Shown here: piece after piece, positions 17,304-54,871 of the stretch
Layout: every line of letters begins with the position of its first letter
How positions within the stretch are numbered: the first letter of the stretch is position 1
Origin: an uncultured bacterium
GTDB lineage: Bacteria > Babelota > Babeliae > Babelales > Babelaceae
Assembly: GCA_963819815.1 (NCBI GenBank)
Contig: CAWFXL010000001.1
Coordinates: 320,001-384,000, forward strand
Reading direction: 5' to 3'
DNA length: 64,000 nt
Translations under genes and position numbers: made by a program
Notes under the pieces: model-generated
What the model saw: only the letters and a program-made list of their open reading frames with translations
The model's database searches: none
What the model was told of the DNA's origin: nothing

Positions 17304-17349
17304 GTAAATTCCTGGCTAGAAGCGATACATATAAACAATGGAGCAAGCG

Positions 17350-29854: not shown

Positions 29855-30001
29855 GCGTAATCAATGTTGTGCACTCGATACCATCATCTCTACGTCATTA
29901 TGCCCTCCAAAAAAGAATATACAGCAGTTTGCCAACTTTGTATTTTGCTGATATGGTACAATAATTGCTATCATTCAGATATTTTAGAAAGGAAGAATGC
30001 T

Positions 30002-34969: not shown

Positions 34970-35326
34970 GCTATTCCTCACTAAGTAGTATCATGGCAAG
35001 GAATCTAGCAAGAGTTGCACCTGAATTCCTTATATCAATACCATTCTAAAAGATAAATCTAAAGTAATCCACTGGTTGAGGATACTTCTCTTTTAATCAG
35101 AATTCAAAACGCTATCCCACTCCTCAGCAGTAATATCGTATATGGTATCCGCAGATCTTTTCTTTTTTTGAATGGGTACTCGTTGAGTATGGGTGCGTTC
35201 AATCTGAAGCTGAATGCTTAAGTAGAACTATTTCCATTGGATAGGTAGTACTGCATCCCATACTTGCTAGAATGCATGCTATGATACATTTAGTATTCAT
35301 ACGCTCCATACATCATTTTCCGATAC

Positions 35327-37003
35327 TTATTTTACAGATTTTCTAGATTTGAAAAAAGTTTCATTGTTCGCTGAGTTATCAAAGGTAAGCAAGGGCACAT
35401 TCGTATACTTTTCAATCAACTTCGCAAATGAGGCTCTCTGCGCAGGATCGCCAACATACTCTAACGCAGTTTTCCCTCTATCATCCACGAGCATACTATC
35501 GGCACCATGATCTAAGAGCTCATCGAAGGCTTCATAGCAGAGATTCTGAGCTGCTAGATGCAACGGTGTTTGGTTCATATCGTTGCGATCATTTATAGCT
35601 ACTGAAGCGATTAACCCCCTAACTATTTCCATGACGCCACTCGATGCTGCAATATGTAATGGAGTGTTACCAGAAGCATCCCGGGCTTTTACATCCGCAC
35701 CACGCATAATAAGCAAGTTAACTAGAGATTTGTGTTTAGAGCCAATTGCCAAATGAAGAGCCCTAGAGGTCAGTGTATCATCGCTGGCATCAACCTGTGC
35801 TCCATCGTTGAGAAGCTTTATCGCATCTGCTAGTACTACCGTTGAAGGACTAGTACACATTGTGATTAACCTTTTATTAAATTGCCAGACCTCATTGCTT
35901 ATTAAATGAGCGCCGGTATATCCATGCCCAATTTTTGGGTCCTTATTTTTCAGGGTTAAAGCTGGTCTGTTTGGAATTGCAACTTGAGCTGGCGTTATCG
36001 AAAGCTGTTTAGGTAGTAGAAAGCCCTGAGCATCTTTAGTTTGCAGTAGAACAGGTTTTAACTGAAGACTAGTTTCATCAGAATCGAAAACTGTTTGCAC
36101 AGAGCCCAGAGTAGGATTTTTTGATTTTGACATAAGGTCAATAAGTTTTCTTGACGCTTGAGTTACTTCTTCTTTCGTGTTTTCTTTGTAACTTGCAGAT
36201 ACTGCGGCATAACTACGCTTTTTTTGTGCATCTTTAGAGGTTTTGGAAGAAGATTTCTTTGCCACGGTAGCATCGGGTTCTGAAAATAAATCTGATGCTT
36301 GTTGATCAGGTTGCGTCTGTTCTGTTAGTTGAACAGCAGCTACCGTATTTGGGAGTCCTTGACGATCTGAACTTTGGACATCTACTGCCTTATCGGCCTC
36401 ATCCTTATAATGTCTGCTTAAGAGCAATCTCTTTAGAGATGGAACTGTAGCAGTAGAAGATGCTGCGTTAGCTGCTCCAATGGAATCAGAATTATTCTGT
36501 ACTAAGGATGACAAGCTAGAGAGGGTTTCAGCTCGCACTGCCTCATCAGCTGACACGCCATTAATTTTTCTCTTTCTAGTATCTTGCGAGGATGACGAAG
36601 ATGTTTTGAGGCCTTCCTTAACCCCATTGGCAGGTCTTTTCATAGATCGTGGTCTGAGAGATCTTTGATTTTTCGATGAAAGTTCCTTCGCGTCCACTTG
36701 TTTTAATTGCTCTTGTGCATTTTGGAGTGCTTCCTGGGGAATCGTAATGACCGTACTCCTTTGTCCCGAACTCGTTGATCTTTCGGACGCTCCGAGCGAT
36801 TCTTGACTTCTTTTCACCGAAGATGCCTTCGCTTTCGATTTTTTTAACTTTTGCTTTATTACCGCATCGAAAACTTTCTCTGGGATCGTAATGACAGTGG
36901 TATGTGGTCTCATTGAAGGTCTTGGTTTATCTAAAACTTTATCCATAGCACCTAAAGTATTTAGCAATCCGCACATTAAGATTATTATAAGTATTTTTTG
37001 CAT
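35327..37003 (-). CDS. Exported protein with low-complexity basic/Ser-rich N-half and C-terminal ankyrin repeats
   Basis: Signal peptide. RALHLAI, GNTPLHIAA, QTPLHLAA and GKTAL motifs. Confidence 0.85.
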   Translation of the reverse strand: MQKILIIILMCGLLNTLGAMDKVLDKPRPSMRPHTTVITIPEKVFDAVIKQKLKKSKAKASSVKRSQESLGASERSTSSGQRSTVITIPQEALQNAQEQLKQVDAKELSSKNQRSLRPRSMKRPANGVKEGLKTSSSSSQDTRKRKINGVSADEAVRAETLSSLSSLVQNNSDSIGAANAASSTATVPSLKRLLLSRHYKDEADKAVDVQSSDRQGLPNTVAAVQLTEQTQPDQQASDLFSEPDATVAKKSSSKTSKDAQKKRSYAAVSASYKENTKEEVTQASRKLIDLMSKSKNPTLGSVQTVFDSDETSLQLKPVLLQTKDAQGFLLPKQLSITPAQVAIPNRPALTLKNKDPKIGHGYTGAHLISNEVWQFNKRLITMCTSPSTVVLADAIKLLNDGAQVDASDDTLTSRALHLAIGSKHKSLVNLLIMRGADVKARDASGNTPLHIAASSGVMEIVRGLIASVAINDRNDMNQTPLHLAAQNLCYEAFDELLDHGADSMLVDDRGKTALEYVGDPAQRASFAKLIEKYTNVPLLTFDNSANNETFFKSRKSVK

Positions 37004-37664
37004 GTTATTCTCGCTATCTTATTCAATTACCTAATATCACTCTATTTGTTACTTTTGGCACTCACGACTAAGTCCCCTATACACATATAACTAGTTACAG
37101 AGAGCGGTATGCCAAGCAACGGTGCACGCAAGAGGTGGTACACAAAGCAACACTATCTGTCGTTTTATTTTATTAGCACGCGGCCACGTTGTTCAAATTG
37201 TAATGAAAAATAGAAGATTTGTCAACTGCCCCCACCTTACGCATAGAGACGACCTATGGAATCGCCCAAGTAACGAATAGATGGAACATAACGGTTAGGG
37301 CGGCTCAGACAAGCAAATCTACTTTGAACAAATGCTGCGGAATGCCCCCAAAATCACTTGCAGATCACAGAAAAAAGGCCGGTGGGGGTAAAGCCCTCAT
37401 CCAACAGCTCCTACTCGCCTAACTTTAGGAAATTGCTGTAAGACGTGCTCAAATTATCCTTCGTGATGAAGAATCATCAAGCATTTTTGATAGGCTTGGT
37501 CCTCTTGAGAAAGCAGCGAAGCGAAAAAGGTAGAACCCTGGCCTTGCTTGAGGACCTCACAAAAGCACAAGATGGCAGATGTTTTCACTTTTGAACTTCT
37601 TGATATCTTACGTGCTTGAATTCTAAAGATCAGCGTTGTATAGTTATATTGTATACCAAACGAG

Positions 37665-39230
37665 ATGATTATGAACTTCACCTATCAGCTAGCTCTTGTA
37701 AGCATGTGTCTAATCCTAAGTGATGTAAGCGCCTCCGAGAGTGCTACCAAAAAAAGAAAAGATAACTCTGGTGCTGCTCGTTTTGATGAAAGAATGAAAC
37801 AAGAGGCTCTAGCACTGGCAAGTGAACGGCTGCGCAAGGTATGTCAAAATAGAATCTTAGGCAGCGTGGAAAGCTTAGTTAAAGCTGGTGCCGATGCCAA
37901 TGATCTGGACGCAAGCACACATAAAAGTGCACTGCATTTGGCCGCTGAGAATGGTGACTATACCATTGTTAAGCGCCTCCTTGCATGCGGCGGCAACCCC
38001 CAGATTACCGATGGAGGAGGTCGAACTTCGCTCCATTGGGCAGCTATGGCAGGTGACGGAGACGTAATTTCCCTTCTTCTAAGAGATCTTTCAAGAGAAA
38101 GCGTGAATCAAATTCTTCAGGCAAAGAACCTTAGAGGCGAAATGGCTCTTCATGCAGCCGCTGCAGCTGGTCAGCTTGAATCATGTAAGGTTCTCCTAGA
38201 CATGGGCTGTAGCGTTAATGCACTTACAAGCGCAAATCGCACTCCTCTTCATCTAGCAGCATATTATGGACATACCCACTTAGCTACCTATCTTATAGGA
38301 AGAGGAGCTTCCCTTACCTTGGTAACAGCCGGTGGATTTACTGCTTTACATGAAGCAGCTTTTCGAGGACATGCTAAAACGGCAGCTGCTCTTATTGAAC
38401 GTGATATTAATAAAGAAACAGTTGATAGCAATGGACTAACAGCTCTCCATGTAGGCATACAGCAGGGGCACAAAGAGGTGGTTGCACTCCTTCTTGGAAG
38501 CAAATGCAATGCGAATGCTCAGCTACCAAATGGAGACTTTCTTGTACATATGGCAGCACGCCTTGAAGCAACGGATCTATTTGAACTATTAATCCAGTAT
38601 GGAGCTCAGAAAGATGCTCTCAATAAAGAAAAGTATACTCCCTTAAATCTCGCATTACATGAAGGTCTTACTCGTGTTACTAGCCTTATGCAAGAACCTG
38701 ATAAAACCGATATTGATAAGAAGTTGACCGCACTTCATAAGGACATACACTACGTGGTTGCATCCCTTCTTGAACAAGGATGCAAGAAAAATTTTCCTTT
38801 ACCAAATGGAGACTATACATTGCATACAGCAGTACGTATAAGATCTCAAAACTTATGTGATCTACTCATCAAGCATGGAGCTCAGAAAGATGCTCTTAAT
38901 AAAGAAGGGTATACTCCCGTCCATGTTGCCGTACAAGAAGAGCTTGACCTTCTTGCATTACACTTAGTCGAACTGGGAGCAGATCCTGAGATCAGAACAC
39001 CACAAGGGAAAACGGCGAGTGCTATCGTTTTTCATAGAGAACTTAAAGGTACCGTATCTCCGGAGCAACGTAGCCGGTTTAGTTCAGCTAATACAGCCCT
39101 CGCAGTAGCACTCTTTAATAAAAGAAAAGAGTATCAAGAAAAGCATGCCTCTACAGGTGCAGTGGCATCAACCTCAACACAGGCAGCCCAGCCGAGCACT
39201 TCTTTAAGGCAAGAAGATTTAAAACAATGA
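37665..39230 (+). CDS. Ankyrin-repeat protein with signal peptide
   Basis: About 10 ankyrin repeats, including a duplicated LPNGD..GAQKDALNKE.YTP unit. Confidence 0.9.
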   Translation: MIMNFTYQLALVSMCLILSDVSASESATKKRKDNSGAARFDERMKQEALALASERLRKVCQNRILGSVESLVKAGADANDLDASTHKSALHLAAENGDYTIVKRLLACGGNPQITDGGGRTSLHWAAMAGDGDVISLLLRDLSRESVNQILQAKNLRGEMALHAAAAAGQLESCKVLLDMGCSVNALTSANRTPLHLAAYYGHTHLATYLIGRGASLTLVTAGGFTALHEAAFRGHAKTAAALIERDINKETVDSNGLTALHVGIQQGHKEVVALLLGSKCNANAQLPNGDFLVHMAARLEATDLFELLIQYGAQKDALNKEKYTPLNLALHEGLTRVTSLMQEPDKTDIDKKLTALHKDIHYVVASLLEQGCKKNFPLPNGDYTLHTAVRIRSQNLCDLLIKHGAQKDALNKEGYTPVHVAVQEELDLLALHLVELGADPEIRTPQGKTASAIVFHRELKGTVSPEQRSRFSSANTALAVALFNKRKEYQEKHASTGAVASTSTQAAQPSTSLRQEDLKQ

Positions 39231-40079: not shown

Positions 40080-41162
40080 TTAATGAGCGGTAGACGTATA
40101 AGGCTTCTCGCAGCATGGCTTACATGGATTACAAGGTGGTACGCAGGGCTTGCAAATAACTGAGCGAATCTCATCAAGAAGTACCAAATCCGCTTGGAAA
40201 CACTCACGCGGCAAGGGAACAAGATTGAGACATCGTGCAAATTTTTGTCCCTCAGTAAGCACAAAGTAGATAAACTGGGCAAGATTGCACGCAATAAATT
40301 CAGAAGGTTGATTCGCGTAGACGATCAGGTATTCTTTAAAGGTCAGAGGATAGGCGCAAGGGATTTTAGGTTTTGTAACTGATTCGTCACACAATCCTTC
40401 TGCAGCTTTCCGTATGCTCTCAAGACATGGCTCAACAAATTGCGTGCAATCATAGATGCTTTCTATTTCAGCACTTCTTGCACAACATTCTTGAGCTTGA
40501 GCAAATGTCGTATAGCCAATCGTACCGTGAGTCGCCTTAACACGAGCAGCAACGTTGTTTGACGTACATTGATTTTCTCCTTTGCAGTTCCAAGGCCAAC
40601 AAAGAAGGTAAGCAAGAACGGTCGACAATTCACTCGCGGCGCACGGGTAAATGGCTTGTATGTAAGCATCACCTTTATAGCATATGTTATTGTATGGTCT
40701 ACGTAAGAGTGAAGCCCAGGATACACATTTCTTCCTAAAGAAAATATCGATTATGTCCTCTTCAGTAAGACGCAGGGTGAAATTGCGCGGGAACTTACAG
40801 CAGGGATCGTCAGTAGGAAGATTGTATACCACGGAGATTGCGGAGAATACGATTGGAATACTTAAGATGCAATCAGGTTGCCTATCCTGTTCTGAACGGG
40901 TGGCAGCAATATCTGATCCGGCAAAAGAAACTCTATAGGAATAGAGCGCTTCTCTTCCATCCTCAGAACCGAAACAACTCTTGTCAGATTTATAGGTAAA
41001 ACAGGGGCAAGGATAAATTTTGTTATAGCGTGCAATGTTTCTATCAATAAAAGGTTTAAGGTCAAATGAACCCGCCCCTTTAATCACGCTTAAAAACTGC
41101 TCATCACCAGCAGAGATATTTACCGACATACCGAAAATAAAAAATGTATAGAGTAACTTCAT
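40080..41162 (-). CDS. Divergent, very Cys-rich PstS-fold paralog (copy A)
   Basis: IKGAGS, FAGSD, IPIVFSAISVVYNLP, GTIGY, YPLT and FIYFVLTEGQ motifs. The RxDxSGT phosphate motif is degenerate (YPCAASELS). Cys-Pro tail. AGGAG RBS before ATG 41162. Confidence 0.8.
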   Translation of the reverse strand: MKLLYTFFIFGMSVNISAGDEQFLSVIKGAGSFDLKPFIDRNIARYNKIYPCPCFTYKSDKSCFGSEDGREALYSYRVSFAGSDIAATRSEQDRQPDCILSIPIVFSAISVVYNLPTDDPCCKFPRNFTLRLTEEDIIDIFFRKKCVSWASLLRRPYNNICYKGDAYIQAIYPCAASELSTVLAYLLCWPWNCKGENQCTSNNVAARVKATHGTIGYTTFAQAQECCARSAEIESIYDCTQFVEPCLESIRKAAEGLCDESVTKPKIPCAYPLTFKEYLIVYANQPSEFIACNLAQFIYFVLTEGQKFARCLNLVPLPRECFQADLVLLDEIRSVICKPCVPPCNPCKPCCEKPYTSTAH

Positions 41163-41343
41163 CACTTTCTCCTTTATGCAACTTAAAGACTTCCACATTC
41201 TAGCGCATTGAATTCTTAATTTTCAAGAGTTTTGAAAAAATATTTTTTTGAACGGGTAAATTTAGTCATAAGATGATGAAATATCTTCATAGCAGGGCTT
41301 TTTTATGCCTTTTTTTAGGGATATGTAGGTAGACTTAAAAAGG

Positions 41344-41370
41344 ACATGCCGAGCACGAAGCTCGGCATGT
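41344..41370 (-). terminator. Conserved terminator of the PstS-like family (1)
   Basis: ACATGCCGAGC-loop-GCTCGGCATGT, followed on the minus strand by ccttttt. Confidence 0.85.
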
Positions 41371-41402
41371 ATAAAGAACGAATTACTGAGTGCTAAAGTA
41401 CC

Positions 41403-42644
41403 TTAGTTGCCGCAGGTTGGGCAGGCCACTTCACAAAACTCAGGTGTTCTGCAAGGTATGCAAGGTTCAACGCATGGTTTGCAAATTGCAGGAGCAATGC
41501 TATCAAGCAAGATCTTACTTGCATTTAAGCAATCTTGGGTCATTGGAACGAATCCTCGAACACCAAGCTTTTGACCTTGGGTAAGAAGGAATACAATGAA
41601 CTGGGTAAGATTGCATGCAATCCATTCTATTGGCTGAGTACCAAAGAGATCAAAGTATTCAGCGGTAACGATAGGATATACATGTCCTGGATTTGAATGA
41701 GGAGCAAACTGACATATTAAGTCGTTACATACCTGGTTATTAATGACAGAATCGATCTGAGCGTTCTGTATCGCTTCATCATCAGTTGGTGAAATGAAAT
41801 CATTTTGGTGGAGGTTGTCTGTAGGTGGCATTAATCCACCTTGAAGCAAGAGTGCTGCTGGAACTGTTGGAAGGCTGATGAGATTGGCACCCGTTCCTAC
41901 ATAACCGATTGAACCACCTGTTTTTCGTATTTCTTCGATCATTTCTGCAGAGCTATACACCTTATCTGCGGTAGTAACATTAAGAAAATGTGGTTTTGGA
42001 TCACCAGCATTAACCGCTGTGCAGTTTCCACAGTCATTTAAATACGTTGTGAAAGCTTGGTTAGTACCAGATGCATCACCACGAGCAAATGGGGTTATAC
42101 GATTAGTACTTGAAAAGCTTACGTTACAGTTATAAGGCTTTGCAAGATAGGTTTCCCAAAGTGTGTCTGCATTAGTCGCACCCGTATAGATACGACAAAG
42201 ATCTTCACCTGTTAATCTCAATACACCAGCCGGAGTGAGGCATGTTGCAGGATTGTATGTTGACCCATTACTTTGAGTTACACTGGCTGGCAGGTTATAA
42301 ATAACCGATACTGAAGATAGAATGAAAGGAATTTGCAAGAAGCAATCTGGCAAATTACGCGTTTCAGTTGCAGGTGCTAGAAAGTCTGAAACTGAAGCAT
42401 CGAGCAATCCATTGTATACATCGTAGCGTCCTCGGAACGAATCTGAGAATTCTGCTGTTTGCTTATACACAAACGTTGGGCAGGGGAAAATAGTATTATA
42501 GAGCGAAATTGCAGCATCCATATAGTTTTCTGCAAGCGTTGATCCGCCAATGCTAATCGTGCTTCCGTAACTTGGAGCATATTTTGCTGAAACAGAAACG
42601 CTGGTTAATAATGCTAACGATAAGATAGCTAATTTTTTCATCAT
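41403..42644 (-). CDS. Cys-rich PstS-fold periplasmic binding protein paralog (copy B, intact)
   Basis: IGGST, ASVSD, ARGDASGTNQAFTTYL, GSIGYV and YPIV motifs. 18 Cys, of which 7 are in the last 26 aa. Confidence 0.88.
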   Translation of the reverse strand: MMKKLAILSLALLTSVSVSAKYAPSYGSTISIGGSTLAENYMDAAISLYNTIFPCPTFVYKQTAEFSDSFRGRYDVYNGLLDASVSDFLAPATETRNLPDCFLQIPFILSSVSVIYNLPASVTQSNGSTYNPATCLTPAGVLRLTGEDLCRIYTGATNADTLWETYLAKPYNCNVSFSSTNRITPFARGDASGTNQAFTTYLNDCGNCTAVNAGDPKPHFLNVTTADKVYSSAEMIEEIRKTGGSIGYVGTGANLISLPTVPAALLLQGGLMPPTDNLHQNDFISPTDDEAIQNAQIDSVINNQVCNDLICQFAPHSNPGHVYPIVTAEYFDLFGTQPIEWIACNLTQFIVFLLTQGQKLGVRGFVPMTQDCLNASKILLDSIAPAICKPCVEPCIPCRTPEFCEVACPTCGN

Positions 42645-42699
42645 GAGATAAATCCTTTTTTGTTGTTTGTTTGTTTGTTTATTAAAAATTTATTGCCAA

Positions 42700-42796
42700 A
42701 ACGGCACGTGCGGGTCCCCCAACCTGCGAAATGAATTGTTATACTGATAGTAACTCTTCGATATTCACTATAACCTAATATTTTTTATAAAATCAA
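42700..42796 (-). promoter_or_regulatory. Conserved promoter and 5' leader hairpin (copy B)
   Basis: TTGATT-N18-TATAGT, then GAAGAGTTA.. and hairpin GCAGGT-TGGGGG-ACCCGC. Confidence 0.7.
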
Positions 42797-43446
42797 TAAT
42801 TCGTAAAAGAATTTTTGTCATCAAATGTTTTAATCTATATTAATCAGTTTGATATTATAATAAGCGGTGTTACTTAGGTTGCGAGGGTAGATTGTGGTAA
42901 AAGATGATCAAACCAAGATATCTATGAATAGTGAGATAAGGGGAAGGGTCCTTTGATAATAGATGCGTGAAGAATAAGTGATTTTGATACCAGGAAATAG
43001 TTAATAGACTTAGTGAATATAATGATCGGGAATTATTAAGCGTAGGCATGTACAATCTGGATGATCTTTAAGATGGAACCACTAATCCCTAACTGTTTTG
43101 AAATAAAGCCTTAGATGTCTTGGACAAAAAGGCATACCTCATGAACAAAAATATGCCGAGTGGTCTGCATGATAAAAAATTACGGTGGCTGATACGTTTG
43201 AGAAAAGCCAGAATTAAGGATCGAGGGAGGGATAGTATTTGAGACATAGAAGACTGTATCGTATTTTCGTAACTGGGCAATTGATCTCGTGAAGAGGTCT
43301 GTAAATGAAGCTCATTTATCTAGAAATCTAAAGGCCATTCAGCTGAAAAAAGCGGATTGTTATGTTCCACTCTGATCTTTCACTCTATGAAATGCCTCAT
43401 GCCCGGCAAACGATCTGAAGAGATAATATCAATCTTAGAAATGTCC

Positions 43447-43505
43447 TTAGCATGTGCAGGTTGGACAAGTCTGAGGGGCTATCATAAGGTGTGCAGGGAT
43501 ATGTT
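43447..43505 (-). pseudogene. Tiny remnant of a PstS-like Cys-rich tail
   Basis: Encodes PCTPYDSP / QTCPTCTC-stop. Similar to 45983-46050 and to the tail of copy E. Confidence 0.5.
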
Positions 43506-43520
43506 GGTAGATGTAAAAGG

Positions 43521-43547
43521 ACATGCCGAGCATGAGGCTCGGCATGT
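43521..43547 (-). terminator. Conserved terminator of the PstS-like family (2)
   Basis: ACATGCCGAGC-atgag-GCTCGGCATGT, followed on the minus strand by cctttt. Confidence 0.85.
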
Positions 43548-43576
43548 AAAGAACGAATAATTGAGTACTAAAGTGC

Positions 43577-44825
43577 TTAGTTGCCGCAGGTTGGGCAGGC
43601 CACTTCACAGAACTCAGGTGTTCTGCAAGGTATGCAAGGTTCAACGCATGGTTTGCAAATTGCAGGAGCAATGCTATCAAGCATGATCTTACTTGCATTT
43701 AAGCAATCTTGGGTCATTGGAACGAATCCTCGAACACCAAGCTTTTGACCTTGGGTAAGAAGGAATACAATGAACTGGGTAAGATTGCATGAAATCCATT
43801 CTATTGGCTGAGTACCAAAGAGATCAAAGTATTCAGCGGTAACGATAGGATATACATGTCCTGGATTTGAAAGAGGAGCAAACTGACATATTAAGTCGTT
43901 ACAAACCTGGTTATTAATGACAGAATCGATCTGAGCGTTCTGTATCGCTTCATCATCAGTTGGTGAAATGAAATCATCTTGGTGGAGGTTGGTCTGTAGG
44001 TGGGAGCAATCCACCTTGAAGCAAGAGTGCTGCTGGAACGGTTGGAAGGTTAATGAGATTGGCACCCGTTCCTACATAACCTATTGAACCACCCGTTTTT
44101 CGAACCGCTTCAATCATTTCTGCAGAGCTATACACTAGATCTGAGGGGTTGGTACTAACATTAGGAAAAGTTGGTTTTGGATCACCAGCATTAACCGCTG
44201 TGCAGTTTCCACAGTCATTTAAATACGTTGTGAAAGCTTGGTTAGTACCAGATGCATCACCACGAGCAAATGGGGTTATACGATTAGTACTTGAAAAGCT
44301 TACGTTACAGTTATAAGGCTTTGCAAGATAGGTTTCCCAAAGTGTGTCTGCACTAGTCGCACCCGTATAGATACGACAAAGATCTTCACCTGTTAATCTC
44401 AATACACCAGCCGGAGTGAGGCATGTTGCAGGATTGTATGTTGTCCCATTACTTTGAGTTACACTGGCTGGCAGGTTATAAATAACCGATACTGAAGATA
44501 GAATGAAAGGAATTTGCAAGAAGCAATCTGGCAAATTACGAGTTTCACTTGCAGGTGCTAGAAAGTCTGCAACAGAAGCATCGAGTGATCCATTGTACAC
44601 GTCATAACGTCCTCGGAACGAATCTGAGAATTCTGCTGTTTGCTTATACACAAACGTTGGGCAGGGGAAAATAGTATTATAGAGCGAAATTGCAGCATCC
44701 ATGTAGTTTTCTGCAAGCGTCGAACCACCAACTCTAATGGTACTTCCAAAGGCTGGTCTGAATTGTGCTGAAACAGAAACGCAGGTGAGTAATGCTACCG
44801 ACAAGATAGCTAATTTTTTCATCAT
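43577..44825 (-). pseudogene. Cys-rich PstS-fold paralog (copy C), frameshifted at ~43991
   Basis: Near-identical to copy B. Plus strand reads gaggttGgtctgtagg versus gaggttgtctgtagg in copy B (one extra G). Joins ORFs 43974..44933 and 43577..44065. Confidence 0.85.
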
Positions 44826-44874
44826 AATAATCCTCTTTTGTTTTTTTGTATGTTTTTTGTATAGTTTATTAAAA

Positions 44875-44968
44875 TGGCACTTGCAGGTCCCCCAACCTTC
44901 GGTATAGCCGTTAAACTGATAGTAACTCTTCATTACTTACTATAATTAATTTTCTATTATGAAATCAA
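44875..44968 (-). promoter_or_regulatory. Conserved promoter and 5' leader hairpin (copy C)
   Basis: TTGATT-N18-TATAGT and hairpin GAAGGT-TGGGGG-ACCTGC. Confidence 0.7.
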
Positions 44969-45214
44969 TGATTTAAAATGAATAATATTTATAAATATTT
45001 GTATATAATGTGGCTCTTTTTTCTAGACTGTCATATCTGTTAGAAATGGGTGTCATTGTAATCGTTAATAACTCGTGCCAAACACACGTTTTAGTCAAAA
45101 AAATAACATCGTTCATACGGCACATCTGTTCGCTCACTATGAGGGAATGCCCTAAGGCATAGACTTTTATGATCCTTCTCATTTCAGCCGCTATACCTAA
45201 ACTACAGTGCTTAC

Positions 45215-45569
45215 CCTCTGCGCTGGGAAGGCCCCTAAATGTATGTGTGGGGATGAGAAGCACAAGATAGTATCTCGAGATCATCGAGGTGATATCTTCT
45301 AACAACTCTTGCATGTATCTCATTTGCTGATACTATCACATGTGAACTGTAGCGGTTTTTAATAATCAAAATAGTGCCAGAGCAGCCTCGCCTTTGTACT
45401 GAGTGATGTATCGGCGTAGAACCACTCATGATAGAGACTATAATGCTGCGAAAAATATCGAACGAGTTGGGGCATCAACTCTTGGGTTAGGCGATGTAAG
45501 ACCAACTTTGTTGGCTATCGCTGTCTGATCCCAGAATCCCCGGAATGTATTCCTGGACGAGTATGTCAA
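45215..45569 (+). mobile_element. Non-autonomous, internally deleted IS200/IS605 derivative (355 bp) related to the tnpB element
   Basis: Preceded by TTAC (45211-45214). 45215-45407 aligns to the left end of the 15920-17303 element. 45416-45569 aligns to the 3' end of tnpB plus the right end, finishing in TCAA. Confidence 0.9.
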
Positions 45570-45589
45570 TAATAAGCATCTCAGCATCG
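45416..45589 (+). ncRNA. Putative TnpB omegaRNA (scaffold ~45416-45569 plus flanking guide TAATAAGCATCTCAGC...)
   Basis: TnpB omegaRNAs are known to overlap the tnpB 3' end and right end, with the guide taken from the 3' flank. Exactly this part is retained here. Expression is not demonstrated. Confidence 0.55.
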
Positions 45590-45982
45590 GGGGGAACTTT
45601 CAAGATCCATTTTCCAAATTCGATACCAAGAAAAACCTCAATGCATCCTGCTAATCAAGATTACCACGTAGGCATCAGACTAGGAGCATCTGTTTTGTAA
45701 GCAACTGTAAGATCCTCTTGCCTTCCAAATGAGCTTTCCCTTTGTGTCGAAGCCTTCGATCTGGCCAGCTTTATATTTGCGGCACTGGCTAACCTTCATA
45801 GTCCATCATCAGAAGGGATTCCCTCTATCTTTTGGAGAGAGTGTGTCACCAGAGACTTGAAGCCATCTTGTAAAAAAGTAATGAAATGCTGCTGATAAAC
45901 TCTTTATAAAGGAGAAAATAATAGTGAACAAATTGCATGACGAGCAAGGGGCCCAACATGAGAGCCTATCAATGAAATGATC

Positions 45983-46295
45983 TTAGCATGCACAGGTGGA
46001 CAAGTCTGCATACGCCATGCAGGGCTATCGCAAGGTGTGCAAGGAGGAATGTAAGCATTGCAAAGTACTCCAGAGATACTATCTAGGAAGATCTTGCTAG
46101 AGCATAAACCTCATTGGATCAATGAAACTAGCCAGAGACACCACCGTTGATTTTGGATAAGACTGAGCAAAATAAAATTGTAAGATGAAAGCGATCCTTT
46201 CGATGGGCTAAGTTCTGCGATAACGACAGGATATATTAATGCCTTAGCAGGGTGATTCTGACAAGACAAGTTTGTAGAGAGAATTGCCTGATAGA
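45983..46295 (-). pseudogene. Decayed 3' remnant of another PstS-like paralog
   Basis: Minus-strand translations STNLSCQNHPAKALIYPVVIAE and SSKIFLDSISGVLCNAYIPPCTPCDSPA match TNLICQP..YPLVIAE and LDSISAVICEPCIEPCIPCDSPA of copy E. Confidence 0.75.
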
Positions 46296-46591
46296 TTAAG
46301 TTTGTTCAATTTAGATTAACCCAGTTAATCTAAATTCAAAACCCGTGAGGTCATACGTGTCGGTACCATCTTCCACAGTGGCTGGTAAGTAATGAGAAAG
46401 GATCTTTTAAGCTCGGTTACCCAGGTAACTTTGACCTTACATCTAGTTTCTGTACGTCAGACCCAAAGTTTTGACCTTCAGATCTCACCTCGCAATGGGA
46501 AACTCTTGCCTACAGCTTACGATTCTGGTTGCTACGAGCCCGCTGGGGACTTGAACCTCTTTGAAATTTTACCAAACCCAGCGCACAGGAA

Positions 46592-46618
46592 ACATGCCGA
46601 GCACGGGGCTCGGCATGT
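46592..46618 (-). terminator. Conserved terminator of the PstS-like family (3)
   Basis: ACATGCCGAGC-acggg-GCTCGGCATGT. Weak U-tract. Confidence 0.75.
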
Positions 46619-46662
46619 AAAAAGTTACTATCTAGTATACTAGCTGAGGAGAGTACTTCCCC

Positions 46663-47931
46663 TTAGTTGTTGCAGGTTGGGCAAGCCTCAGGGCACGTTG
46701 CAACGGTTGCGCAAGGTATGCATGGTTCAATGCAAGGCTGGCAAATTGCAGACCCGATATCATCAAGGAGAGCCTTACTCGCTGCTATACAGTCTTGCGA
46801 CATTGGGAAGTATCCTGGAACCTGACTTGCAAACTTTTGCCCTTGGGTAAGAAGGAACAAAATAAACTGTTTAACGTTGCATGCAATAAAGTCTGTTGGC
46901 TGTGTACCAAAGACTTCAAAAAGCTCAACAGTAACAATCGGATATGCACCTGGAACGCAGGTTAAGCTCGTGCAGTTTCCACTGCTTACTGCAGCCTGTA
47001 CGTTCGCCGCAGTTGGTGCTAGGAAGTCAGCATTCACAGTTGAGCTGCCGCCTGCTTCGAGTATCAAAGCAACAGGGATGTTAGGATTATTTGATACCGC
47101 AATATCACCTAACCCAGCATAGCCAAGAGTGCCAGGATTAGCTGCTACATAGTTAACCAAGGCTATACCACCTGATACGCGAACTACTAAGCTTGTAAAT
47201 TGGCTATCGGTGAATAATGGCGGCGTTCCAGCTGGAAGTGGATTGTTAGGCGTTATTCCTGGGCAATTTCCACAGTTAGCTAGATAGGTTGTGAATACTT
47301 GCGAAGTACCACTGCTATCTAGTCGAGCAACTGGAATTAATGGATAGTTGTGAGTGTTAACCGGAGCAATACACCCCGTAGGTTGTCCACCTAAGTTATA
47401 GGGCCTTGAAAGAAAATCTTCCCAGAATTCGGTTGTCGGATTTGTATAGATGCTACAAAGATCGCTACCTGTTAATCTCAATCCACCATTTGCAGCCAAA
47501 TCAGCAGCGAGAGCGGCAGTCGTAGTATAAATCTTAGCTACGCCACCCTTACATACCGTAAACATCCCTCCCGCAAAAGTGATATTTGGTAGATGATAAG
47601 GGATAGCAACTGCAGAAACTAGGAATGGAATTTCCAGGAGACAATCTGGCAAAAACTGTGTTTCAGTTGCAGGCGCTGGAGCATCTGACACTGCACCAGT
47701 AAGTGTTCCGTTATAAACACCAGCACGCCCAGCACCTGAGTCTGAGGTTGCATAGGTGAATGTTGGACACGGGTAAATTGAGTTTTAAAGACTAACAACC
47801 GCAGTCATGTAAGGTGCTGCGAGTGAAGATCCACCAAGTTTAATGTTAGCACCAAAACCAGGTGCAAATTTTGCCGAAGCAGAAACGCATGTGAGTAATG
47901 CTATCGACAAGATAGCTAATTTTTTCATCAT
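46663..47931 (-). pseudogene. Cys-rich PstS-fold paralog (copy D) with an in-frame TAA at 47785-47787
   Basis: MMKKLAILSIALLTC...IKLGGSSLAAPYMTAVVSL*NSIYPCPTF; the stop replaces a conserved Tyr. Continues in frame into ORF 46663..47691 (SDSGAG, ARLDSSGTSQVFTTYL). This is the most canonical PstS motif set in the array. Confidence 0.85.
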
Positions 47932-48623: not shown

Positions 48624-49190
48624 ATGAAAAAACTCATGCTTCTTACATCGTTAGCAATTTCAAGTTACTCGTACGGAATTCCAGATAAGATACTAAAGGA
48701 AGTTGCAACTGCTCATTCTCTGAGCGAGCTGAGTCAAGAAGCGCAAGAGGCAATTACTTCCAAAGAGCTTCCCAGGGAAGCTCTCAGTACTGAGCTCAGG
48801 AAAGAAGTAGAGGCTCTCGACTTTTACTGGGAGATACTCCTTGCTATCATTACCCAAAACACGGATGCTATCGCCCATCAAGTAGCCCAAGGTATTGATC
48901 TTAACGCAAAGACCAATTTTAACTATACCTTTCTCACCTTTGCAGTCGATAATAATGTTGTTGAAAGTGTGCGCGAATTGATTAAACAAGGTGCTCAGGT
49001 CTCAATTCCCGATGAGTTCGGGAGAAGCCCACTTCACTATGCAATTATTCGTAGAAACAAATCTATGGTAACACTGCTTCTTGAAGCTGGGGCCGATCCT
49101 AATCTGCCTGATCACAAAGGTAATACACCACTAATGTGCACATCAAACGAAGGCATTATTGCCTTACTACGTCTTTTTGGGGCACACTAG
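48624..49190 (+). CDS. Ankyrin-repeat protein with signal peptide
   Basis: GRSPLHYAI and GADPNLPDHKGNTPL motifs. GGGAG RBS. Confidence 0.9.
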   Translation: MKKLMLLTSLAISSYSYGIPDKILKEVATAHSLSELSQEAQEAITSKELPREALSTELRKEVEALDFYWEILLAIITQNTDAIAHQVAQGIDLNAKTNFNYTFLTFAVDNNVVESVRELIKQGAQVSIPDEFGRSPLHYAIIRRNKSMVTLLLEAGADPNLPDHKGNTPLMCTSNEGIIALLRLFGAH

Positions 49191-49288
49191 AGAGGAAATT
49201 CGGCTACAACAAACTTACTGACTGCACCAGCATAGGAAAGTTGAGCTTTTCAGAGCGTAACAACCTTAAATGATAGAGAAAGGAATCT

Positions 49289-49897
49289 ATGGATCACCAA
49301 CTTATAGCAATACTCAGCATACCCTGTCTTGGATATCTCAGTTATTGCATCGCTTTGTACAGCGAAATATATCGCCTAAAAATGTATGGAAAGCATGTTG
49401 TCACAGAAGAAGAAGACCTTGATCCTATTCTGAGGGCACCGATTACCACCAGATCCTGGTTCAATCTTTCACAAGCAGCAACATGGCTCATACTTGGAGG
49501 ATTACTCCTTGGCGGCTACGCCTACGGAGAATATCTAATCAGGTTTAACCCTATAGAAAAATATCTCGATAGGTTTATCACCCTAAACTGGATTCTTGAG
49601 TATAGTATTGGACTTTTACTCACGCAAACGTTACTGATCCTCGGCTATGCACTAGAATTGTTGCTTATTTTTCGATTTGCAGATCGGAATCGGAGCTCAC
49701 TCATAGGGGAAGTACGTATGTCAAGCGATATAGTCAATCACAAAAGACTCTATCATTTCATTCCATTTAGCATAATTTTGCTAGCTGTGTATGCCTATAA
49801 TCCAAGTGCATTTACTTTGGGATGCGCAATCGCGCCCTTTATCTCTATGTTATCGATGTGGCAACGTATTAGGCGCGCAAGGAAAACAGCTTCTTAA
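49289..49897 (+). CDS. Hypothetical membrane protein
   Basis: About 5 hydrophobic segments. AGGA RBS. Confidence 0.7.
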   Translation: MDHQLIAILSIPCLGYLSYCIALYSEIYRLKMYGKHVVTEEEDLDPILRAPITTRSWFNLSQAATWLILGGLLLGGYAYGEYLIRFNPIEKYLDRFITLNWILEYSIGLLLTQTLLILGYALELLLIFRFADRNRSSLIGEVRMSSDIVNHKRLYHFIPFSIILLAVYAYNPSAFTLGCAIAPFISMLSMWQRIRRARKTAS

Positions 49898-49983
49898 TGT
49901 GCTGCTTTGCCAGAGAGTACCTAGGTGAACTTATCTTCCCAGGAGTTCTTTGTGACGAAGAGCCCTAGCCCTTAGAGAATGTC

Positions 49984-52077
49984 TCAGTGTTTGTGGTACC
50001 CATTTTTTTTCAACTGAGGTGGATGGCAGTCTTTAAGATGTTTTGTACGATCCGCCTCCACACACGTAGCATCACAGTAGCGAGCTTCTTTACAGTTCTG
50101 ACAGATAAGCGAAGCTGATCCCTCATGACAATACCTGCAGACTGTTGGCAGATCCAGCATTTCAAGCTGCCTAATTTTAGGCGTGAGAAAGAGCGGAATA
50201 AGAGAAAGAACTGCCTGGTGAGGAAGTTCAGCACCAAGCTCCTTTAAATAACTAACGACGAGATCATGGCCATATGAATGGGCGCATATGAGAGGTGTTA
50301 TGCCATCTTTATTAGGAGTTGCTGGTTCAGCTCCATGTCTCACAAGAGTTTTAACGACCTTCAGACGACCAGTTTGGCACGCAAGGAGTAAGGGAGTACT
50401 ATTGCGTGGTCCGCACTCATCGACGGGCGCGCCATTCCGTATAAGAAGATCGACAAGCCGACTATGGCCACACCAACTTGCAAAGTGAAGAGCCGTAAAG
50501 CCTTCAATGGTTTTTGCTGAGCGGTCTGCACCTCGTGCTAACAGAAGTTCCACACAATCAAAGGCTCCAGATTGACATGCTACTAAGAGGGCTGTTTGAA
50601 GACGATCATTAACACAGTTGACCTGTGCTCCATGATCAAGCAAAAGCCTCGCAAGCTCTTTCCTATTATTAAGGCAACAGATCATAAGAGCAGTCATTCC
50701 CTTGTATCCTTTTGTATCTACCTGTGCTTGTGCCTCTAAGAGAGCTGTCACTAATTCTTCAGTACCTTGGTTGCATGCAATAGAGAGCGCCGTACCATGC
50801 TCTGCACTTACCGCCTCAAGATCTGCCCCCAGCTCTTTTAACAAGGGAACAAGACGACGTCTCTCTTCAAAGCACGCATAGTGCAGAGCCGTTACCCCAT
50901 GTTTGTTAGCATACGTAACGACACCTCTTTTTTTGGCAGTCAGCCATTCAATTAGTGCTGGGTCTTCGAATGAACATGCGGCCATGAGGGGCGTGATCCC
51001 ATCTGTATCTTCTGACTGTACATCGGCACCGGCAGCTATAAGGGCTCCGATTATGCGCCGCAACCCTTTTTGGCACGCAGCGATAAGGCCAGTTGTGAGG
51101 TCCTTTTGACGATCTTTCTTCAGAGATAGAAGCCGTATAACGAGATGATAATGACCGTTCTCAACAGCATATATGAGGGGGGTTTTTCCTGCGCTATCAG
51201 CCTGTGTTAACTGTGCGCCATGCCTCAGAAACAGATCAACAAGCTCAGCGTCTCCCTCCTCACATGCTTGATGCAGCGCTGTTCTTCCCTTATTATCAGG
51301 AATATCGCACGGCACGCCTTTATCAATAAGAAAGACCACCATGCCATAGCGGCCCCGTTCTTTATGCATCATTGCCTGCAGTAGCAGGTTTCTGTTATTT
51401 TCATCAGATTCAGTAAAAGCAACTCCATGCTCATGAAGACGTTGTGCAATAGAAGTCCTAAAATAGATACAGGCCAAGGACAAGGCATTAGTGCCTCTAT
51501 CAGTTTTAAGGGAAGGATCCGCTCCATGAGTCAGCAAAAAGTCGACCCACCAATACTTACCTCTGATCACAGAAAACGCTAAGGGAGTCATATTTCCCGC
51601 CATCTGCAGATTAACATTACATGCGTGGTTTTTTACCAAGAGTGCAGCAATTTCACGCTTATCAAGCTGACAGGCAATGATGAGTGGACTTGCACCTCCA
51701 TCATCCTGAGCATTAACATTAGCTTCGCATACCAAAAGAAACCTAACAACGCGAATATTACCTGCAGCAACGGCACTATGAAGAGCGGTGCTTCCGTCTG
51801 CAGCTCGTGCATTAACGTCTGCGCCATGTTTTAAGAGTTGGCGAACTTTAGTTGAAAATCCATTTTCAACGGCAATGATGAGGGGAGTGCGTCCGGAAGT
51901 ATCTCGAGCATTAGGGGAAGCTCCTCGATGTACAAGGTCTGCTATAGTGTCTTTGTCATCGGCCATACATGAGTTAAGGAGCAGTCGATCTTCTTTCGTA
52001 AGGTTGATAGATGCCCCATAGAGCATACCTGGTAGTATACTGATACTCAACAAAGCGATGGTGATTATCTTGTTCAT
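49984..52077 (-). CDS. Ankyrin-repeat protein with C-terminal MYND zinc finger
   Basis: About 17 ankyrin repeats. CRYC..CQNCKEARYCDATC..H..C at the C-terminus. Signal peptide. Confidence 0.92.
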   Translation of the reverse strand: MNKIITIALLSISILPGMLYGASINLTKEDRLLLNSCMADDKDTIADLVHRGASPNARDTSGRTPLIIAVENGFSTKVRQLLKHGADVNARAADGSTALHSAVAAGNIRVVRFLLVCEANVNAQDDGGASPLIIACQLDKREIAALLVKNHACNVNLQMAGNMTPLAFSVIRGKYWWVDFLLTHGADPSLKTDRGTNALSLACIYFRTSIAQRLHEHGVAFTESDENNRNLLLQAMMHKERGRYGMVVFLIDKGVPCDIPDNKGRTALHQACEEGDAELVDLFLRHGAQLTQADSAGKTPLIYAVENGHYHLVIRLLSLKKDRQKDLTTGLIAACQKGLRRIIGALIAAGADVQSEDTDGITPLMAACSFEDPALIEWLTAKKRGVVTYANKHGVTALHYACFEERRRLVPLLKELGADLEAVSAEHGTALSIACNQGTEELVTALLEAQAQVDTKGYKGMTALMICCLNNRKELARLLLDHGAQVNCVNDRLQTALLVACQSGAFDCVELLLARGADRSAKTIEGFTALHFASWCGHSRLVDLLIRNGAPVDECGPRNSTPLLLACQTGRLKVVKTLVRHGAEPATPNKDGITPLICAHSYGHDLVVSYLKELGAELPHQAVLSLIPLFLTPKIRQLEMLDLPTVCRYCHEGSASLICQNCKEARYCDATCVEADRTKHLKDCHPPQLKKNGYHKH

Positions 52078-52357: not shown

Positions 52358-53599
52358 TTAGCAGGTTGTGCAGGTTGGACAATTCGGAGTGCAAATTGCA
52401 GGGCTGTCGCAAGGTATGCAAGGTTCAATGCATGGCTCGCAAATGACAGCAGAGATGCTATCAAGAGATTCTCTACTTGCACTTAAGCAAGATTGGGTCA
52501 TTGGAACGAATCCTGGGACGCTAATCTTTTGACCGTCCATAAGTAGGAACTGAATAAACTGACTAAGATTGCACGCAAACCACTCTGTTACCTGTGGACC
52601 AAAGAGGTCTATATATTCAGCGATAACAAGAGGATAGGTTACAATAGCACCAGGAGTTACGTTAGGGTCTTCACTTGGCTGACAGATTAAGTTTGTGCAA
52701 TTTGGATTGTTAATTTGGGCAGCCTGGACGTTGGCGAAATTTGGCCCTACGAAGTGGTTGAGGTTGAAACCATCAGTTAAACCTCCTCCAAGCAAGAAAG
52801 CTGCTGGTAGGGGAAGATTTGGAAACGCAGCTAGGTTAGAACCTGTCCCTATATACCCAATTGAGTCACCCGCTGTTGCTACTCCAGAAATCATGTCTGC
52901 TGAGCTGGATGCCCCGGCGTCAAATTCAAAAAGAGTATTTGGGTTGTTTGTCGGGTTTGGATCGTTAGCAATTACCCTTGAACAATTTCCACAATCATGT
53001 AAATAGGTTGTGAATGCTTGGTTGGTACCGTTGGCATCCGTGCGGGCAAACCTAAACATTTGCGTATTGAGAAGCAAAGTACTGTCAGACACGTTATAGG
53101 GTTTTGCAAGATAGGTTTCCCAATATACAGTCACACCACTCGTATAGATCTGGCAAAGATCAGAAGCTGTTAACCTCAAAACACCATCAACTAGATCAGC
53201 TGGGAGGTGATACACAAAACCAGATGCATTTGTCACTGTAGGGGGTATATTGTAAATGATAGATACCGAAGAAAGAATAAAGGGAATTTGCAAGAAACAA
53301 TCGGGCAAATTCGCAGTTTCACTTGAAGGTGCTTTAAAGTCTGACACGGAAGCATCGAGCATGCCGTTGTACACATCCTTGCGCCCCACAAAATCATCTG
53401 TGAATAATGGCCCTTGTTTATATACAAACGTTGGGCAGGGGAAGATATCATTATAGAGAGCAATTACAGCATCCATATACGCGTTTGCGTTTGAAGAACC
53501 ACCAAGTTTAATGGTGCTTCCAAAACTAGGAGTGAATTTTGCAGAAGCAGAAACGCACGTTAATAATGCTACCGACAAGATAGCTAATTTTTTCATCAT
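52358..53599 (-). CDS. Cys-rich PstS-fold paralog (copy E, intact)
   Basis: IKLGGSS, ASVSD, ARTDANGTNQAFTTYL, SIGYI and YPLV motifs. Cys-Pro tail. Confidence 0.88.
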   Translation of the reverse strand: MMKKLAILSVALLTCVSASAKFTPSFGSTIKLGGSSNANAYMDAVIALYNDIFPCPTFVYKQGPLFTDDFVGRKDVYNGMLDASVSDFKAPSSETANLPDCFLQIPFILSSVSIIYNIPPTVTNASGFVYHLPADLVDGVLRLTASDLCQIYTSGVTVYWETYLAKPYNVSDSTLLLNTQMFRFARTDANGTNQAFTTYLHDCGNCSRVIANDPNPTNNPNTLFEFDAGASSSADMISGVATAGDSIGYIGTGSNLAAFPNLPLPAAFLLGGGLTDGFNLNHFVGPNFANVQAAQINNPNCTNLICQPSEDPNVTPGAIVTYPLVIAEYIDLFGPQVTEWFACNLSQFIQFLLMDGQKISVPGFVPMTQSCLSASRESLDSISAVICEPCIEPCIPCDSPAICTPNCPTCTTC

Positions 53600-53638
53600 A
53601 ATAATCCTTTTTTATTTTTGTGTTTTTTTACTATTTAC

Positions 53639-54871
53639 TTAGCTTACGCATGTTGGGCACGTTGGCACGCAAACTTTTGGGCTATCGCATGGTACGCAAG
53701 GTTCAATGCACGGCTTGCAAATTCCCGTAGAGATGCTATCAAGTTGTTCCTTGCTTGCACATAGACAGTCTTGAGTCATCGGAACGAATCCTGGAACGCC
53801 TAGCCTTTGCCCTTGGCTAAGCAGGAACAGGGTAAACTGTGAAAGATTGCATGCAATCCCTTTTGTTGACTGTGTACCAAAGAGGTCAATAAATTCAGCG
53901 GTAACAAGAGGATAGGTTACAATAGCACCAGGAGTTACTCTAGGGTCTGCACTTGGCTGACAGAGTAAGTTTGTACAATTCGGGTTACCGATTTGTGCAG
54001 CCTGTACGCTAGCATCATTTGGCCCTACGAAGTCTTCGAGGAAAGTACTAAGACCTGCTCCTTGCAAGAAAGCTGCTGGAAGATTTGGAAACGAAGCTAG
54101 GTTAGCCCCTGTTATTACATAACCAAGTGAGTGAGGCGTTATCGCTACGTCAGAAATCATGTCTGCCGAGCTGGATGCTCCGCCGGCAGATGTAAATAAA
54201 GTATTTGGGTTGTTTGCTGGGTTTGGATCGTTAGCAATTACACCTGAACAGTTTCCACAATCATGTAAATAGGTTGTGAATGCTTGGTTGATACCAGAGG
54301 CATCATTGCGAGCAAACTGAAATAACCGAGTTGACGATGATGACCCGCCCGTGAAACTATCGTTTAAGTTATAGGGTCTTGCAAGATAGGTTTCCCATGT
54401 ATTAAAAACATTCGTATAGATCTCACAAAGATCTGCAGCAGTTAACCTTAAAACACCATCAGTAAGATCAGCTGGGAGGTGATACACAAAACCAGATGCA
54501 TCCGTCACCGTAGCTGGTAAAGTATAGATAATAGACACTGAAGAAAGAATAAAGGGAATTTGCAAGAAACAATCGGGCAAATTCGCAGTTTCACTTGAAG
54601 GTGCTTTAAAGTCTGAAACGGAAGCGTTGAGCAATCCATTGTACACGGCCTGGCGCCCCACTATATCATCTGAGAATAGTGTCCCTTGCTTATACACAAA
54701 CGTTGGGCAGGGGAAAATTGAGTTATAGAGAGCAATAGCAGCATCCATGTATCCTTCTGCGGCCTCAGAACCACCAAGTTTAATGGTGCTTCCAAAACTA
54801 GGCGCAAATTTTGCTGAAGTTGAAACACACGTTAATAACGCTACCGACAAGATAGCTAATTTTTTCATCAT
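53639..54871 (-). CDS. Cys-rich PstS-fold paralog (copy F, intact; likely co-transcribed with E)
   Basis: ARNDASGINQAFTTYL motif. Only a 39-bp gap to copy E, with no terminator between them. Confidence 0.88.
   Translation of the reverse strand: MMKKLAILSVALLTCVSTSAKFAPSFGSTIKLGGSEAAEGYMDAAIALYNSIFPCPTFVYKQGTLFSDDIVGRQAVYNGLLNASVSDFKAPSSETANLPDCFLQIPFILSSVSIIYTLPATVTDASGFVYHLPADLTDGVLRLTAADLCEIYTNVFNTWETYLARPYNLNDSFTGGSSSSTRLFQFARNDASGINQAFTTYLHDCGNCSGVIANDPNPANNPNTLFTSAGGASSSADMISDVAITPHSLGYVITGANLASFPNLPAAFLQGAGLSTFLEDFVGPNDASVQAAQIGNPNCTNLLCQPSADPRVTPGAIVTYPLVTAEFIDLFGTQSTKGIACNLSQFTLFLLSQGQRLGVPGFVPMTQDCLCASKEQLDSISTGICKPCIEPCVPCDSPKVCVPTCPTCVS

Follow-up and report, generated by a model that had tools for sequence, protein, structure and literature searches.

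Gene-less relatives of the IS200/IS605 transposons have been described as PATEs, multi-copy elements in which both ends carry subterminal hairpins, no gene remains and TnpA is supplied in trans. According to the sections of Meers et al. (2023, PMC10055086) that deal with them, PATEs often encode omegaRNAs on which TnpB made elsewhere must act in trans, and PATE-like minimal elements are found in Geobacillus stearothermophilus. An experiment reported by Zedaveinyte et al. (10.1101/2023.11.20.567912, fig. S10C) indicates that TnpB is equally active with an omegaRNA provided in cis or in trans from a mini-IS, and processing of the tnpB mRNA into omegaRNA by TnpB is reported by Nety et al. (PMC10278001). 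For ISDra2, the 116-nt scaffold is stated to be necessary and sufficient for cleavage in the relevant section of PMC11844463. The idea that a mini-element might donate guides to TnpB in trans, raised for the present locus in an earlier note, is itself not new (Meers et al. 2023, PMC10055086). Gene-less IS200/IS605 minis that carry omegaRNAs and depend on TnpB in trans are already published, and the locus described below adds little that is new in principle. Stand-alone omegaRNA loci were reportedly also mentioned by Altae-Tran et al. in 2021.

Here we describe miniA, a clear-cut case from nature whose host, a Dependentiae-like endosymbiont, is an unusual one. The element lies in a stretch of 64,000 nucleotides (the window; G000:C1:320001-384000) of a 1.64-Mb genome, G000, which is assembled in 2 contigs, has a G+C content of 42.7% and is 88% complete by marker genes. 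We consider it likely that miniA is a non-autonomous, PATE/MITE-type deletion derivative of an IS608-like element that specifies a predicted complete omegaRNA usable in trans, and that it is stranded today.

With the PATEs as described in PMC10055086, miniA shares a left and a right end, the lack of a gene, the presence of several copies, a presumed need for TnpA in trans and a predicted omegaRNA for TnpB made elsewhere; of the subterminal hairpins, the right one folds in miniA and the left one is reduced to a clamp. It differs from those of G. stearothermophilus in that its host is a Dependentiae-like intracellular bacterium, that no TnpA was found in the genome and that its copies are old (3-15% diverged) and partly decayed. 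As in the account of IS608 from Helicobacter pylori given by He et al. (2011, PMC3201880), insertion occurs 3' of TTAC without target duplication and right cleavage falls after TCAA; the distance from TTAC to the foot of the left hairpin is given there as 19 nt compared with 17 nt here, and that from the foot of the right hairpin to TCAA as 10 nt compared with 8 nt here. Unlike in IS608, no tnpA was found in the full-length copy or elsewhere in the genome. With the ISDra2 omegaRNA (reRNA), as presented in the structural sections of Nakagawa et al. (2023, PMC10097598), miniA shares a 116-nt scaffold that occupies the 3' end of tnpB up to the transposon boundary, four stems, a guide taken from the flank and a pseudoknot in which the loop of stem 1 pairs with the bases that immediately precede the guide. 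No sequence identity is detectable between the two RNAs, the TAM would be TTAC here as against TTGAT in ISDra2, and the correspondence of the stems was mapped from covariation and not from a structure.

Anatomy of a protein-less IS608-like element

When positions 45151-45650 were compared with the window by blastn, two segments matched the minus strand of a full-length tnpB element, one on the left (45211-45410 against 17307-17108; 200 bp, 88.0% identity, E 1e-69) and one on the right (45416-45569 against 16069-15920; 154 bp, 92.9%, E 5e-62). Together they make up miniA, a protein-less IS200/IS605 derivative of 355 bp (45215-45569) with the IS608-like arrangement of TTAC immediately before the element and TCAA as its last bases (Table 1). 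The earlier note had drawn the same boundaries. It had also held that the mini descends from a diverged relative and is not a fresh copy, a reading that is supported, and its division into 193, 8 and 154 bp is accurate to 3 bp or better. The '8-bp junction' proved to be a diverged direct fusion: in fragE, a right-end fragment with an undiverged junction, left-end sequence abuts the tnpB 3' sequence directly, and miniA differs from it by three substitutions. Foreign filler at this position is thereby ruled out.

Table 1. Positions of the features of miniA and of the full-length element (window coordinates), and filled and empty sites in G000 and its sister genome G001.
Feature	Position	Strand	Basis or remark
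TTAC target tetranucleotide, inferred TnpB TAM, outside miniA	45211-45214	+	Before 6/6 left ends; same motif given as IS608 target in PMC3201880
Left-end-derived part, including 5' untranslated region of the lost tnpB	45215-45410	+	88% identity to 17108-17307; junction set by comparison with fragE
Left subterminal hairpin (IPL), decayed in miniA	45232-45252	+	DNA fold
Promoter-like TTGCAT-N16-TACTAT, TG one base before second hexamer; presumed former tnpB promoter	45309-45336	+	Sequence reading; presumptive function
Right-end-derived part: last 37 tnpB codons and right end	45411-45569	+	92.9% identity to 15920-16069
omegaRNA scaffold, 116 nt	45454-45569	+	Covariation, covariance model, minimum-free-energy fold
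Scaffold stem 1	45464-45481	+	
Scaffold pseudoknot	45471-45475 pairs with 45563-45567	+	
Scaffold stem 2	45483-45486 pairs with 45530-45533	+	
Scaffold stem 3	45490-45522	+	
Right subterminal hairpin (IPR) with bulged T, also RNA stem 4	45537-45560	+	DNA fold
TCAA right cleavage motif, final bases of miniA	45566-45569	+	IS608 right cleavage site
Predicted 16-nt guide (right flank)	45570-45585	+	Position relative to scaffold
Full-length tnpB-only element including TTAC, 1388 bp	15920-17307	-	Only long ORF is tnpB
tnpB, intact, 380 aa	15957-17099	-	Pfam OrfB_IS605 3.6e-23; Cas12f1-like_TNB 1.8e-18
G001 mini	Filled in G001; empty in G000 (C1 about 1341850)		Empty-site motif TTAC
miniD	Filled in G000 (C1:1402600); empty in G001 (C2 around 48427, L163)		Empty-site motif TTAT
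Full copy	Filled in G000 (C1:337304); empty in G001 (C4 around 5324, L158)		Empty-site motif TCAC

The coding content of miniA is just the 37-codon tail of tnpB, which corresponds to amino acids 344-380 of TnpB (92% identity). Among open reading frames of at least 50 aa, one of 64 aa lies wholly inside the element on the opposite strand, and two overlap its ends (116 aa on the opposite strand and 51 aa on the same strand). Insertion of miniA into a gene was considered and rejected, the nearest PstS-like pseudogene remnant (45997-46317, minus strand) being outside the element.

DNA folding reduced the left hairpin of miniA to a 4-bp CCCC/GGGG clamp, as in miniB, while miniD forms a 7-bp stem with a bulged T. 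The right hairpin of miniA, with its bulged T, does fold, and one pair near the base of stem 4 is C.A (columns 90-108).

Copies of the family and their past mobility

A search of the genome for further mini-copies, as proposed in the earlier note, was successful. Both blastn and the covariance model identify one full copy, four minis (miniA-miniD), the right-end fragments E, F, G and H, and a left-end fragment, I. MiniB (C1:499307-499665) is 95% identical to miniA, and the left hairpin of miniC has been deleted. One deletion junction is common to miniA, miniB, miniC and fragE, which occupy four loci with unrelated flanks; the mini form itself has therefore transposed. Segmental duplication was rejected as the source of the same-junction copies, the flanks having been checked and found not to be duplicates of one another. 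MiniD has a second junction and keeps 116 nt of the right end, and a third junction, with about 147 nt of the right end kept, is found in a mini of genome G001 (L036, G001:C2:107400-107720). These three deletions (that shared by miniA, miniB, miniC and fragE, that of miniD and that of the G001 mini) arose independently. TTAC precedes all six left ends examined, namely those of the full copy, the four minis and the G001 mini, and TCAA closes eight of the nine right ends in the genome, fragE ending in TTAA.

G001 is a close sister, with 96% nucleotide identity to G000 in recA, and its relatedness accounts for the similar mini there; transfer between species was rejected as its source. Comparison of the two genomes yielded three filled/empty pairs (Table 1), all with exact boundaries and without target duplication, and TnpA therefore acted on the family after the two species split. 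Both of the empty sites found in G001 carry an altered TTAC, for which arithmetic from the flank identities (96-97% and 93-94%) gives a chance of ~0.03, with n=2 and the changes unpolarised for want of an outgroup. Chance could account for the alterations, as could escape either from cutting by TnpB or from renewed insertion. For the empty site of miniA, the flanks were not found in 20 relatives, and an exact 30-nt scan of metagenome contigs with the right flank returned 0 matches. Likewise, the flanks of miniB, miniC, fragE, fragF and fragG were not found in G001 (67% complete), and a search of the 8 remaining genomes of the genus did not find those of miniC, fragE, fragF and fragG either.

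The mini-element keeps an entire covarying RNA scaffold

In the full copy, the homologue of the scaffold overlaps tnpB at its 3' end and runs no further than the boundary of the transposon. This right end is strongly conserved in TnpB relatives of only 43-54% protein identity, and its terminal motif is present at 23 of 24 loci, two truncated matches (L028 and L032) having been excluded beforehand. Structure was assessed on an alignment of 29 sequences, 7 of this lineage and 22 relatives, from which L023 (a duplicate of L018) and L026 (with a variant end) had been dropped. Under a five-helix structure, 92.7% of the cells are paired and 21 of the 27 pairs have changed on both sides, a result reached by 0/500 shuffles, and slid controls paired at most 53% of cells. 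With the pseudoknot added, a trimmed alignment of 23 sequences (the full copy, L029 and five insertion-bearing loci of Negativicutes having been left out) gave 96.3% paired cells and compensatory changes in 20 of 31 pairs, again matched by 0/500 shuffles. In the pseudoknot, 5 bp join the loop of stem 1 to the bases that lie 3-7 nt ahead of the guide, and their covariation comes mainly from one divergent sequence, L024. MiniA keeps every helix, scores 126.7 bits against the covariance model, and has a minimum-free-energy fold that reproduces the stems. The covariation strongly supports a real structured RNA of four stems and a pseudoknot, all of which miniA is predicted to form.

Retention of the omegaRNA region, which had been claimed in the earlier note, thus extends to the entire covariation-supported scaffold. 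One substitution singled out there as pairing-compatible, ggTgat to ggCgat, indeed converts U.G to C-G in stem 3a, a covariation-supported helix in which UG occurs 7 times and CG 2 times. The guide was likewise placed correctly, as the 16 nt after TCAA.

Rfam 15, searched at its gathering thresholds, returned 0 matches in the whole window, full copy included, which shows that no curated model covers this clade and not that an RNA is absent. At the other end of the transposon, a left-end pattern search matched 0/20 relative loci, and TTAC followed by a hairpin was seen by eye in four cyanobacterial loci (L011, L017, L018 and L019).

The evidence that the RNA of the minis has itself been under constraint is weak to moderate. 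The whole scaffold was kept in 3/3 independent deletions, each with at least 116 nt of the right end. Under a crude geometric model of breakpoints, the chance that a deletion leaves 105 nt or more of the right end as well as the promoter region is 0.29, and that of three such events about 0.025 (the cube). In 15/15 copy pairs the scaffold shows higher conservation than the left end (means of 94.1% and 89.3% in the 10 pairs that exclude the full copy), whereas for the three minis with the shared junction (A, B and C) the differences number 24/348 in the scaffold and 45/459 in the left end, only a slight gap. The copies have diverged by 3-15% from one another. A G-C pair of stem 1 was replaced in miniB by A-U, a compensatory change that postdates the deletion common to these copies. 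Within this lineage as a whole (10 copies, 9 from this genome and the G001 mini), one compensatory pair and 7 broken paired cells were counted, and covariation was not significant, 52/500 shuffles reaching the observed value.

Lone omegaRNA-like scaffolds of related but distinct elements, scoring 51-77 bits, were seen in other genera of the family: L148 (G011), L150 (G026), L151 (G012) and L149 (G028). The first three have no adjacent tnpB, and L150 and L151 resemble minis of 200-230 bp with a short left end.

The single intact TnpB lies next to the most deviant scaffold

The full copy resembles miniA in having TTAC before it and TCAA at its end. Its TnpB, encoded by the one intact TnpB gene in the genome, is 43-54% identical to relatives from cyanobacteria, Firmicutes and other bacteria and aligns over its full length to ISDra2 TnpB (8bf8) with E 3.8e-41. 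In this alignment the protein has an Asp, a Glu and an Asp (the RuvC residues D/E/D) at the positions that we take to be the catalytic triad of ISDra2, and the two CxxC pairs (the zinc-finger cysteines) are kept. Compared with pseudogene remnants, the gene shows a dN/dS of 0.27 over 70 codons, with mostly synonymous changes, in a stretch that overlaps the RNA and so confounds the two constraints.

The sole intact tnpB carries the most deviant scaffold. In the full copy (15920-15960, minus strand) stem 4, which doubles as the right TnpA hairpin, has lost 4 nt (TTCC) from its 3' arm. No other sequence has this loss, whether among the 9 right ends of this genome or in the alignment of 29, and the 22 relatives all keep the arm. 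A base kept in 27/29 sequences is also changed, and stems 2-4 are lost from the minimum-free-energy fold. The model score of 118.1 bits, against 121-129 for the others, is not evidence on this point, as the training alignment held the minis and not the full copy. By DNA folding, both TnpA hairpins of the full copy have decayed.

Elsewhere in G000, a short piece of a TnpB from another lineage (41% identity, E 9.7e-7; C1:532818-532985) and a weak extra match to the scaffold model (26 bits; C1:1340222-1340308) were observed.

Candidate promoter, predicted guide and TnpA in the present genome

According to the earlier note, the deletion had kept what is needed both for mobilization and for expression of a guide RNA. 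The whole scaffold and the past movement of the mini form agree with this, but the left hairpin of miniA has decayed and the search for tnpA, suggested in the same note, found none in the genome. Y1 TnpA was not found with Pfam PF01797 (0 candidates) or by tblastn with 6 TnpA proteins from relatives (best E 0.57), in a genome that is only 88% complete by marker genes although assembled in 2 contigs. Without TnpA, empty sites that the guide could cut are not expected to form. recA is present. Among the other genomes of the genus, 6 of 9 encode TnpA. One of these relatives, G005, has 10 TnpA matches and carries a 512-aa open frame (L054; G005:C1:1012572-1015925) that begins with a complete Y1 TnpA domain and extends well beyond it, a possible TnpA fusion.

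The promoter proposed for miniA, TTGCAT-N16-TACTAT, is present where it was said to be, and its location is also kept in other left ends; its strength is another matter, as it matches 7/12 consensus positions and falls below the threshold of a sigma-70 consensus scan, which did not list it. No terminator-like site lies between it and the scaffold, both same-strand terminator-like sites being upstream of it. The neighbouring genes are on the opposite strand, so read-through cannot supply miniA RNA.

Nor did the genome hold a second target for the guide, as the earlier note had thought worth looking for: the sole perfect match to the miniA guide is the guide itself, which follows TCAA and not TTAC. 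For none of the nine guides was a second TTAC-flanked match within 2 mismatches found in the genome, which argues against an exapted targeting role. As judged from these features of the genome, miniA can probably in principle supply a trans guide and is probably stranded today.

Origin and present role of the mini-elements

According to the model that we favour, a single deletion in an ancestor would have brought the terminus of the left-end untranslated region directly up against the final ~160 nt of tnpB together with the right end. The nuclease gene would have been lost in this way, while the ends recognized by TnpA, the region of the former tnpB promoter and all 116 nt of the scaffold stayed. 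The resulting mini would have spread by means of TnpA supplied in trans. Its RNA, if transcribed, would be a complete omegaRNA, with the first 16 nt beyond the right boundary of the mini as guide. TnpB from the full copy could load this RNA and cut the empty site (TTAC plus the right flank) after excision, and the cut would lead to restoration of the mini by homologous recombination. With one intact TnpB and recA, no TnpA and a decayed left hairpin in miniA, the system would be stranded in the present genome.

That miniA acts as a trans guide gene now, with an RNA made from its own promoter, loaded into the single TnpB and directed to empty sites, for example on an incoming or sister chromosome, seems unlikely. 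The complete scaffold, the intact TnpB and the path from the promoter-like site to the scaffold, clear of terminator-like sites, all speak for it, but in a genome without TnpA such empty sites are not expected, and no guide has another TTAC-flanked target within 2 mismatches. The compensatory stem-1 change of miniB, which postdates the shared deletion, would fit continued use of the RNA, although it stands against copies that have drifted by 3-15% and 7 paired cells that are broken. Trans supply of omegaRNA does work experimentally, in the assay cited from 10.1101/2023.11.20.567912, and the altered motifs at 2/2 empty sites in G001 (TTAT and TCAC) are what escape from TnpB cutting would leave; yet the latter observation has n=2, a chance of ~0.03 and no outgroup to polarize it. 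A further step, which we regard as improbable, would be that the TnpB, its own scaffold damaged, is served by six near-intact dispersed omegaRNA genes including miniA, and that the altered TTACs of G001 are scars of its cutting. If true, a TnpB served by dispersed omegaRNAs would represent a natural 'one nuclease, many trans guides' state.

Conversely, the minis may be pure relics, in which the RNA never mattered, the right end was kept by chance or for the cis needs of TnpA, and decay has been neutral. We consider this unlikely too. It would sit well with the non-significant within-lineage structure test, the hairpins decayed in several copies and the lack of TnpA. The breakpoint model gives a chance of 0.29 for one deletion but only about 0.025 for three, and 3/3 independent deletions keep the whole scaffold, which is also more conserved than the left end in 15/15 pairs. 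Lone minis of related elements that bear a scaffold are known, too, from three further genera of this family (L148, L150 and L151). A cis requirement of TnpA would demand less, given that 45-56 nt of the IS608 right end are reported to suffice for complex formation in the relevant experiments of PMC3201880. Very improbable, in our estimation, is domestication in the manner of TldR, with TnpB and its dispersed omegaRNAs exapted for host gene control or defence and no longer serving the transposon. A reduced genome that lacks TnpA and retains one intact tnpB, within a transposon whose own hairpins have decayed, could be read in this way. TldRs, however, are nuclease-dead TnpB-derived repressors, whereas all three catalytic residues are present here (RuvC D/E/D) and the TnpB is not nuclease-dead; moreover, the guides match their own flanks only and show no targets conserved across strains, and the absence of the full copy from this site in the sister species means that it is not a fixed host gene.

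For the stranded deletion derivative that we prefer, the locus has several useful features: three independent deletions spare the scaffold, the sister genome provides exact filled and empty sites, and the only nuclease gene has the worst scaffold. They make it possible to test whether minis need their omegaRNA to persist and whether a TnpB can live on trans guides alone.

Host and genomic neighbourhood

The nearest named relatives of the host RecA belong to Candidatus Babeliales genomes (65-66% identity), and the window is dense in ankyrin-repeat, WD40, Sel1 and PstS-like paralogues; these relatives and this repertoire of repeat proteins fit a Dependentiae-type intracellular bacterium. MiniA sits in a degraded spacer between two PstS-like paralogues. 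There are six such (PBP_like_2) paralogues on the minus strand, at 40080-47691 and 52358-54871, together with the C-terminal pseudogene remnant at 45997-46317. Regions with ankyrin, WD40 or Sel1 repeats were observed at 9683-11137, 35327-39230, 48624-52077 and 61703-63952, and also at 33953-34981 and 17338-21402. The ankyrin-repeat proteins are many, and none comes close to the cut-off of any named Dot/Icm effector family. One WD40 propeller and a 1354-aa Sel1-repeat protein are also encoded in the window, a repertoire typical of an intracellular lifestyle. Two adjacent same-strand open reading frames of about 1300 aa each occupy 25934-29854 and 29864-33766.
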